Below, piece after piece: positions 9,759-11,293 of a stretch of DNA of 60,208 bases. How positions within the stretch are numbered: the stretch's first letter is position 1; the number at the start of each line of letters is the position of its first letter. The stretch comes from Patescibacteria group bacterium (GTDB lineage Bacteria > Patescibacteriota > Minisyncoccia > UBA6257 > HR35). A program made the position numbers and the translations under genes. Location: contig JAUQOT010000001.1 in assembly GCA_030550735.1 (NCBI GenBank), forward strand, positions 1-60,208, in the 5' to 3' direction. Under the pieces are notes generated by a model. The model saw only the letters and a program-made list of their open reading frames with translations, made no database searches and was not told the DNA's origin.

Positions 9759-11293
9759 AACAGAATTGGTCCATCGCCAGCTTCCGCTAGCGATACCTTG
9801 TTACGACTTAGCCCTGATCACTCCTCCTACCTTAATTCCGCTAAAGCGAAACTTCGGGTAGAAGGAGCTCTCCTGACCTGACGGGCAGTGAGTGCAAAGC
9901 CCGAGAACGTATTCACCGCGGCATCGCTGATCCGCGATTACTAGCGATTCCACCTTCACGAAGGCGAGTTTCAGCCTTCGATCCGAACTGAGCTGGGCTT
10001 TTAGGGATTAGCTCAGCCTCACGGCTTTGCAACCCTTTGTACCCAGCATTGTACCATGTTTGCCGCCCTGGGCATAAGGGCCATGCAGACCTGACGTCAT
10101 CCCCACCTTCCTCCGGGTTATACCCGGCAGTCTCCCGTGACACATGTAACACGGGACAGGGGTTGCGCTCGTTGCGCCACTTAAGGTTACGGCTCACGCC
10201 ACGAGCTGACGACGGCCATGCAGCACCTGTGCTAGCCCACCTAGAAAATCTAGGTTTCCTCTTTCTTTCGAAAGAGGCATTAGGACTAGCATGTCAAGCC
10301 CAGGTAAGATTTTTCGGTCACTCTCGAATTAAGCAACATGGTCCACCGCTTGGTCGGGCTTCCGCCTATTCCTTTGAGTTTCGACCTTGCGGTCGTACTC
10401 CCCAGGCGGGGTGCTTAACGCGTTAGCTTCGCCACAGAGAGGGTCGAATCTCCCCATAGCTAGCACCCATAGTTTACAGCCAGGACTACCCGGGTATCTA
10501 ATCCGGTTCGCGCCCCTGGCTTTCATGAGATCAGCGTCGGTACATGGCTAGCCAGCTGCCTTCGCCTTCGGCGTTCCGCACGATCTCATCGGATTTCACC
10601 CCTACACCGTGCGTTCCGCTGGCCCCTCCATGACCCTAGCGGATCAGTATTCTTTCCTTCTCTCGAGTTGAGCTCGAGAGCTTTAAGAAAGAACTTAATC
10701 CGCCGCCTTCTCATCCTTTACGCCCAGTAAATCCGGGTAACGCTTGGGACCTTCGTCTTACCGCGACTGCTGGCACGAAGTTGGTCGTCCCTTATTCCTG
10801 GGGTACTGTCAATCTCGATCTTTAAATCGAGACTTCCTCCCCCAGAAAAGCCGTTTACACCCCGAAGGGCTTCTTCCGGCACGCGGCATTGCTGGGTCAG
10901 GCTTTCGCCCATTGCCCAAGATTCTCGGCTGCTGCCTCCCGTAGGAGTAGGGCCCGTGTCTCAGTGCCCTTGGCGGAGACCATCCTCTCAGACCTCCTAC
11001 CCGTCATAGCCTTGGTAGGCCATTACCCTACCAACTAGCTGATGGGACGCAACCCTTTCCTCTACCAGCTAGAGAATACCTCTAGCCTTTACCCCAATTA
11101 ACTTGTGTTAATTGGGGACCATCAGCCATTAGCCCCCCTTTCGGAGGGTTATTGCTGGGTAGAGGGTAAGTTAGTTACGTGTTACTGCCCCGTTCGCCAC
11201 TGACCTTGTGCAAAAAAACACAAGGCCCGTACGACTTGCATGCCTTATCCATGCCGCCAGCGTTCACCCTGAGCCAGGATCAAACTCTCATAA
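9759..11293 (-). rRNA. rrs: 16S ribosomal RNA (about 1535 nt, no large insertion)
   Basis: GC-rich island in AT-rich DNA. On the minus strand: AGAGTTTGATCCTGGCTCAG (rc of 11269-11288), ACTCCTACGGGAGGCAGCAG region (~10930-10950) and GTGCCAGCAGTCGCGGTAA (rc of 10755-10776). Also GGATTAGATACCCGGGTAGTCC (rc of 10483-10504) and AAGTCGTAACAAGGTA (rc of 9794-9809). Ends are estimated by alignment to E. coli numbering, +/- a few nt. Confidence 0.95.

Follow-up and report, generated by a model that had tools for sequence, protein, structure and literature searches.

Loss of 16S rRNA’s anti-Shine-Dalgarno core and of Shine-Dalgarno motifs at gene starts in a clade of Patescibacteria

[quoted passage not shown] The tail that replaces the anti-SD is conserved across the clade, gene starts carry neither SD motifs nor a compensating motif, and the genes are closely packed and begin in an A-rich context; these features were read directly from 60 kb of genome with one rrs copy and from the loci of relatives. 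We consider it very probable that the clade has given up SD/anti-SD pairing and that its start codons are chosen without an SD, by three routes that we infer below. The original prediction of SD-independent initiation is supported by the controlled absence of SD motifs together with the clade-wide loss of the anti-SD.

A complete 16S rRNA gene of 1537 nt, without insertions, occupies positions 9759–11295 of the window (− strand). It matches the Rfam model RF00177 (SSU_rRNA_bacteria) with 1454.2 bits, the gathering score being 50, and covers model positions 1–1533 of 1533; a re-scan of the 3′ end alone aligned the last 51 nt of the 16S to the Rfam consensus without a gap. Helix 45 (9772–9795, − strand) is intact in the cmscan structure line: UAUCGCUAGC and GCUGGCGAUG flank a GGAA tetraloop, 10/10 pairs are standard with none flagged, and a 13-nt single-stranded tail follows. 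This tail, GACCAAUUCUGUU (9759–9771, − strand), is homologous to GAUCACCUCCUUA and, in the column-for-column alignment, occupies the place of the Rfam consensus GAUcACCUCCUUu; the 16S tail as a whole reads GGACCAAUUCUGUU, the canonical one GGAUCACCUCCUUA. At the anti-SD positions, 9766–9762, AUUCU stands in place of CCUCC. The covariance model and the gap-free 3′ end thereby confirm the earlier claim of an intact helix 45 followed by a change from CCUCC to AUUCU. By homology, the mature 16S is predicted to end in ..AUUCUGUU(U). In all other respects the 16S is normal and functional.

The tail is separated from an rRNA processing stem by a 3′ spacer (9731–9758, − strand), which by direct reading and a motif check contains a lone CUCC and no CCUCC; the motif check found no CCTCC from helix 45 up to the next ORF. 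In the stem, the 3′ arm (9670–9730, − strand) forms a duplex with the 5′ leader, where the 59-nt 5′ arm (11296–11354, − strand) adjoins the 16S 5′ end and pairs with 9730–9670. The duplex has a ΔG of −70.6 kcal/mol, versus −25.1 ± 3.9 with shuffled trailers. The absence of CCTCC before the arm is as originally predicted, but the arm starts at 9730 and not at 9728. A candidate rrs promoter (TTGACT, 18-nt spacer, TAAAAT; 11415–11444, − strand) emerged from a consensus scan with 10/12 matches and is weak, matches of this type being no commoner than in shuffled sequence. The window holds a single 16S gene and lacks a 23S gene, and the 16S gene is followed by a response-regulator gene and tRNA-Val.

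The closest 16S relatives among the matches listed, at 80–89% identity, are five Patescibacteria MAGs, one of them a Candidatus Paceibacter; two relatives labelled Thermodesulfobacteriota and Saccharibacteria are probably mis-binned. The tuf and S10-spc ribosomal protein cluster (36146–46175, − strand), delineated by Pfam matches, the upstream listing and junction distances, consists of tightly packed or overlapping genes whose upstream regions are A/T only and devoid of SD motifs. No uL30 gene is present between uS5 (36561–37058) and uL15 (36146–36574), and the two genes overlap. A missing uL30 is general in CPR bacteria according to PMC9297842. Given the 16S relatives and the uS5–uL15 junction without uL30, the sequence assigns the window to a tiny-genome bacterium of the Patescibacteria (CPR), of the Parcubacteria/Paceibacteria type (NCBI Minisyncoccia, a class of which Minisyncoccus archaeiphilus has been isolated, PMC12281837). 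Its G+C content is approximately 28%, and reading is intact under table 11, with long ORFs ending in TAA (31), TGA (9) or TAG (5); we rejected a recoded genetic code, since all three codons end long ORFs and table 11 reads normally. A tblastn search with E. coli NusG, uL11, uL1, uL10 and bL12 gave zero matches in the window and in the relatives’ loci, the rplK/rplA region lying outside the sampled DNA.

We compared the tail among relatives in a genome collection and in metagenomes. The pattern used on the genome collection described tails that lack both outer C residues of CCUCC and was biased towards ..TC tails; the matches listed are mostly Chryseobacterium/Weeksellaceae and Karelsulcia, Flavobacteriia known to be anti-SD-less, together with at least five CPR relatives. 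Because this pattern pre-selected the tail, the metagenome scan used helix 45 as its anchor and put no constraint on the tail. The variant tail was present in 46/46 loci with a 16S at least about 79% identical to that of the window, with CCUCC absent within 30 nt, whereas the canonical GGAUCACCUCCUU was present in all 18 of the 18 loci that are more distant but have the same helix-45 sequence. The comparison of 16S tails that the original prediction proposed thus returned the same or a near-identical tail in every locus of this identity range. Two contigs from different metagenomes, L162 and L175, carry a 16S that is 99.74% identical to that of the window and do not differ from it in tail or trailer. 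The 38 unique variant sequences yield UGGACCAAWUCUKU as the consensus of the tail; its majority-base fraction averages 0.93, compared with 0.73 for the 60 nt before GUCGUAAC. As the variant tail is shared and conserved across the clade, its origin is not sporadic decay: the anti-SD loss is old, fixed and conserved within a deep clade, and common to every sampled member. Downstream of the tail, the majority-base fraction falls to 0.68 and then 0.53 in the next two 13-nt blocks, and sequence conservation drops about 18 nt past helix 45. Among the relatives, 5/14 tail positions vary.

The loss at the 16S is matched at the gene starts. A single simple ORF pipeline was used to call the genes; 50 kb of E. 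coli sequence passed through the same pipeline served as the positive control, chosen because the canonical-tail loci show a weak SD enrichment (15.6% versus 10.9%, 64 starts). GGAG, GAGG or AGGA occurs at −20 to −4 in 4.5% of the 66 window starts versus 13.8% of internal-ATG controls; in E. coli the corresponding values are 49% of starts and 6.4% of controls. The mean duplex energy to ACCUCCUUA is −0.86 kcal/mol at starts versus −2.22 kcal/mol at controls in the window, and −4.87 versus −2.48 kcal/mol in E. coli. When the pairing of −20 to −1 with the canonical tail was compared with each region’s own shuffles, the window gave p = 0.11 and E. coli p = 1.9e-5. We also applied a start-agnostic test, which counts SD-like tetramers that have an ATG opening a long ORF 4–10 nt further on, relative to any position; the ratio was 0.90 (p = 0.69) for the window and 4.40 (p = 4e-24) for E. 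coli. Mis-called starts are not the cause of the missing motifs, since this test ignores start annotation. The variant-tail relatives (44 loci, 206 unique starts) agree, with SD tetramers at 4.9% of starts versus 11.4% of controls. Scoring of starts for SD enrichment, which had been put forward as a check, thus found none in the window or its relatives and a positive signal in E. coli, and the upstream regions said to lack GGAG and GAGG do so in 14/14 of the genes listed. The original prediction was silent on three SD-like exceptions: AAGGAG upstream of a KhpA-like gene (21354–21623, − strand), AAGGUGGAG upstream of secY (34875–36149, − strand) and GAAGGUGGA upstream of 13375–14553 (− strand). 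At 3/66 starts, they fall below chance expectation.

The start regions have a distinct composition. In the window, A is found at −4 to −1 in 58, 65, 52 and 59% of starts, respectively, against a background of 35.5%, while G accounts for only 3–8% at −9 to −6, and the upstream regions are nearly pure A/T. The starts of the relatives show the same A-rich, G-poor pattern. The k-mers enriched upstream of starts are TAAA, TAAAA, TATAA and ATAAT. Folding in 40-nt segments is least stable around the start, at −1.7 versus about −2.5 kcal/mol, which is a trend (p = 0.07). Packing is equally pronounced: among 59 same-strand junctions, 27 are overlaps (11 by 4 nt, of the ATGA type, 6 by 1 nt and 10 of other lengths) and another 17 leave 0–10 nt between the genes, so that at 44/59 the genes overlap or lie at most 10 nt apart. 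The 4-nt and 1-nt overlaps bear out the claim of frequent ATGA/TAATG coupling. As their junctions overlap or abut, most genes are open to termination–reinitiation.

For the genes at the head of operons, the position of promoter-like boxes points to short leaders. At 141 unique operon-first starts from the window and its relatives, 56 −10-like hexamers begin at −21 to −12, compared with 26.7 expected from the −70 to −22 background. Such a concentration would imply leaders of about 0–10 nt. Individual cases illustrate the arrangement. In the segment 1895–1911 (+ strand), a TATAAT at 1895–1900 stops 8 nt short of the dsbA-like ATG, a spacing compatible with leaderless transcription. In the divergent 46-nt stretch that separates lepB from tsaD (17053–17098), TGaTATAAT (17075–17067, − strand) lies 14 nt before the lepB ATG and TACAAT (17086–17091, + strand) 7 nt before that of tsaD; since a spacer of 46 nt holds both boxes, the leaders of these two genes would be very short or missing. 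A generic scan for sigma-70 promoters and terminators was uninformative in this A+T-rich DNA, with 71 sites versus 80 ± 11 in shuffles, so it is the positional enrichment that carries the leaderless reading. These positions support leaderless or short-leader initiation as a putative route at operon-first genes.

With the CCUCC core replaced by AUUCU inside the clade-conserved tail, a G-rich SD helix would be impossible, and starts may instead be reached in three ways. Within operons, where stop and start codons overlap or abut, ribosomes could pass from gene to gene by coupling or re-initiation. Operon-first genes would probably be read from leaderless or very short-leader transcripts. The A-rich, G-poor and weakly folded starts, with A favoured at −4 to −1, may in turn aid the pairing-free loading of 30S or 70S ribosomes, and a putative factor, for example bS1, might read the A-rich leaders. 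If starts are chosen in these ways, no GGAGG-like or AACAGAAUU-like enrichment would be expected at −5 to −12 genome-wide. The originally proposed combination of leaderless or unstructured A-rich leaders with coupling is consistent with the A-rich starts, the gene packing and the roughly 2-fold pile-up of −10-like hexamers.

Several other explanations have to be weighed against this one. The replacement tail (..CCAAUUCUGUU) could have acquired a new partner, such that a novel ‘SD’ like AGAAU, CAGAA or GAAUU is bound by a co-evolved anti-SD, and the clade-wide conservation of the tail (0.93) does suggest some use. Pairing to CAAUUCUGUU or CAAAUCUGUU, however, is weaker at starts than at controls in both the window and the relatives; the duplex energies to the variant tail are −1.24 versus −2.24 in the window and −1.03 versus −2.37 in the relatives. 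Nor is pairing with the variant tail any better than in own shuffles at −40 to −21, −20 to −1 or +4 to +23 (p = 0.81–0.97, with p = 0.97 for −20 to −1 in the window), and tail-complementary k-mers are depleted at starts (AGAAU 2.9% versus 5.8%, CAGAA 0.7% versus 3.5%, and GAAUU also). No co-evolved pair was found among 128 anti-SD-less organisms by Amin et al. 2018 (PMC6107228). On the energies, the k-mer depletion and the own-shuffle test we rejected a co-evolved SD, which we regard as highly improbable, in line with the original observation that no recurrent motif matches the new tail. An artefact or a non-functional copy, be it an assembly error, a pseudogene or a window whose genome holds a second, canonical rrs, appears just as improbable. 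Ends of rRNA genes are prone to assembly problems, a Logan contig with the neighbouring genes ends just short of the 16S, and the evidence comes from a single 60-kb window. The gene nevertheless matches its model over the full length without truncation and is bracketed by the 59-nt processing stem on both sides, the independently assembled L162 and L175 give an identical tail, and 46 relatives share the same tail type, which argues against the assembly artefact that the original prediction had named as a caveat. A canonical second copy would also leave the lack of SD motifs in the genes unexplained. We therefore consider this explanation largely refuted. Least probable of all is a displaced anti-SD, in which a longer mature 16S would make use of the single CUCC in the spacer (GAACUCCAA, about 9738–9735). 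This CUCC lies 22–25 nt beyond the homologous 3′ end, ahead of the processing stem. It comprises four bases only, however, and is confined to the near-identical 99.7% contigs: relatives with less than 99% identity lack it in their spacers. Conservation fades about 18 nt past helix 45, and the regions upstream of genes show no enrichment of GGAG. With CUCC unconserved and GGAG unenriched, we rejected this candidate.

A further explanation is complementary to initiation without an SD and addresses the tail itself, which may have been kept for a task that does not involve mRNA, for instance to contact platform proteins (bS21, bS18, uS11) or to signal 3′ end maturation. This is possible, although on balance doubtful. 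The tail is better conserved than its flanks, the Bacteroidia tail is held by bS21, bS18 and bS6 (PMC7797042), and the variant tail of the Weeksellaceae is near-uniform too (107/121 matches found in fetched loci, among the matches listed). On the other hand, the 5/14 variable positions speak against such a role, and Era, the protein that binds GAUCACCUCC, is reported to be absent in most CPR, including most Paceibacteria (PMC10582724, PMC12641178). We infer from the absence of Era that one constraint on the tail has been lifted. A bolder version, which we think unlikely, would combine two claims: that UGGACCAAWUCUKU is no decayed remnant but, in a CPR clade of class rank, has been selected for a new role, for example in platform-protein docking or Era-free 3′ maturation, and that most operon-first genes are leaderless or near-leaderless. 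If true, this would be, as far as found, the first bacterial lineage outside Actinobacteria and Deinococcus-type cases described as relying mainly on leaderless initiation and coupling, and as doing so without an anti-SD.

Loss of SD/anti-SD pairing, the reading we prefer, is already known both for a subgroup of Parcubacteria (PMC9297842) and in general (PMC3457768, PMC6107228). In the portions cited here, Tsurumaki et al. (2022, RNA 28:1041, PMC9297842) report that only 48% of Parcubacteria carry the CCTCCT motif and that its loss overlaps with the loss of uL1, and SD helices are thought not to form in the anti-SD-less members. The window resembles this subgroup in being CPR, in having no CCUCCU at the 16S 3′ end and in having no uL30. 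Those portions treat the presence or absence of the motif, to which we add the replacement tail, gene-level SD statistics and the start context. More generally, genomes without an anti-SD lack SD signals, and the alternatives discussed for them are A-rich leaders, S1 and leaderless mRNAs (PMC3457768, PMC6107228); anti-SD loss is recurrent in tiny genomes (Nikolaeva et al., PMC7782861). The genomes of Lim 2012 and Amin 2018 (PMC3457768, PMC6107228) include Weeksellaceae/Chryseobacterium, Blattabacterium, Sulcia, Carsonella and haemotropic Mycoplasma, and our genome-collection scan recovered Lim/Amin taxa, with the tail GGAACAUCUCAUUU, among the matches listed. Shared with them are C-to-U/A changes in CCUCC, no SD, no co-evolved SD, an A-rich signal and mostly reduced genomes. 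They differ from the window in belonging to other phyla, in having lost the motif independently, and in their tail sequence, which is UCUCA/UCUCU there and AUUCU/AAUCU here.

Two other systems offer partial parallels. The SD-‘blind’ ribosomes of Bacteroidia likewise go with a genome-wide lack of SD motifs and A-rich, Kozak-like starts (Jha et al. 2021, PMC7797042; PMC13000453), but their anti-SD is canonical, sequestered by bS21, bS18 and bS6 and used in rpsU autoregulation (PMC7797042), whereas here the anti-SD sequence itself is absent. Mitochondrial small-subunit rRNA has also kept helix 45 while missing the anti-SD, and mitochondrial mRNAs are leaderless or short-leadered (PMC10582724). 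Unlike the window, which stems from a free genome of several hundred genes, mitochondria are organelles whose few mRNAs are served by dedicated activators.

Against this background our additions are modest: the replacement tail and its conservation, gene-level controls in the window and 44 loci, the rejection of a compensating SD and positional evidence for short leaders. The case is clean and well controlled, and shows that a free-standing bacterial genome can do without SD/anti-SD pairing. In such genomes an SD model will lead gene finders and expression designs to place starts wrongly, and a 16S 3′ end that departs from the canonical tail should be left ‘uncorrected’. From the conserved replacement tail and the promoter boxes close to start codons come concrete hypotheses on translation initiation that could be tested in the few cultured Patescibacteria.

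The window-type variant tail, a 16S 3' tail without CCUCC, is also present in the 16S genes of two contigs carrying other taxonomic labels. These are L043 (JAUQQL010000009.1), labelled as a Thermodesulfobacteriota MAG, and L022 (CAZZNB010000042.1), labelled as Candidatus Saccharibacteria, and their 16S genes are 88 and 84% identical to the Paceibacteria-type 16S of the window, respectively. We consider both contigs to be probably mis-binned or mislabelled. The same scan of genome contigs (loci L002-L121) reproduces the known anti-SD loss of the Flavobacteriia. Among the matches listed, the tail GGAACAUCUCAUUU occurs in 107 of 121 pattern matches, its carriers including Chryseobacterium, Elizabethkingia, Riemerella, Bergeyella and Kaistella, among others, while the Karelsulcia tail reads ..CUCUGUU. 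A largely uniform replacement tail thus occurs in the Flavobacteriia as well as in the window clade.

In this window, from an organism whose 16S lacks the anti-SD, the sequence that most resembles an SD is an AAGGAG located 6 nt 5' of the ATG start codon of a KhpA-like KH-domain gene (21354-21623, minus strand; upstream stretch 21624-21640). This match is probably due to chance, because any SD-like tetramer (GGAG, GAGG or AGGA) is found at just 3 of the 66 called gene starts in the window. The called starts also place the start codons of three divergent gene pairs back to back (5345-5348, 54941-54944 and 1384-1390), so that the upstream region of either gene is coding sequence of its partner. 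A single CATG is common to both called starts in the S41 peptidase/RecO-like pair and in the uS15/XerC-like integrase pair, and CATAATG at 1384-1390 forms the junction of the third.

No 23S gene was found anywhere in the 60-kb window, and hence none beside the 16S gene (region 9219-11477). A 23S-like match was likewise absent from all 28 variant-tail loci for which 1.5 kb or more of sequence 3' of the 16S gene was available; this set counts the window itself and includes L098, L149, L132, L179, L137, L183, L146 and L162. Unlinked rRNA genes thus appear to be a clade-wide feature. Downstream of the 16S gene, a response-regulator receiver ORF of 129 aa (9271-9660, minus strand) starts 10 nt past the 3' arm of the 16S processing stem, and its final 23 nt overlap a tRNA-Val(GAC) gene on the same strand (9219-9293).

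In the ribosomal protein cluster, the uS5 and uL15 genes overlap and the uL30 gene is missing between them (36146-37058, minus strand), an absence described as a CPR hallmark (PMC9297842). Two apparent gaps in the cluster are filled by the small genes for uS14 (~38379-38597) and uL29 (40040-40240).

This very small genome has a full set of genes for rod shape and peptidoglycan: two MreB paralogues, MreC and a PBP2-type transpeptidase (23650-27620 and 31564-32625, minus strand), together with MraY, MurA and an S11 carboxypeptidase (18129-21315). The expected place of mreD is held by an ORF (25437-25844) that is among seven window ORFs, of 94-417 aa, without a Pfam match at E<=1e-5; others lie at 763-1864, 11478-11924, 14550-14834, 50874-52127 and 57310-58215. 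An unusually long ThyX-like ORF (548 aa; 22023-23669, minus strand) matches the Thy1 domain in two stretches.

Within the 16S gene itself, the 530-loop region (window ~11158-11177, minus strand; 16S positions ~515-534) reads GUGCCAGCAGUCGCGGUAAG, compared with the consensus GUGCCAGCAGCCGCGGUAAU, and mismatches the usual 515F primer site. Owing to these mismatches, the organism would be missed by standard amplicon surveys.
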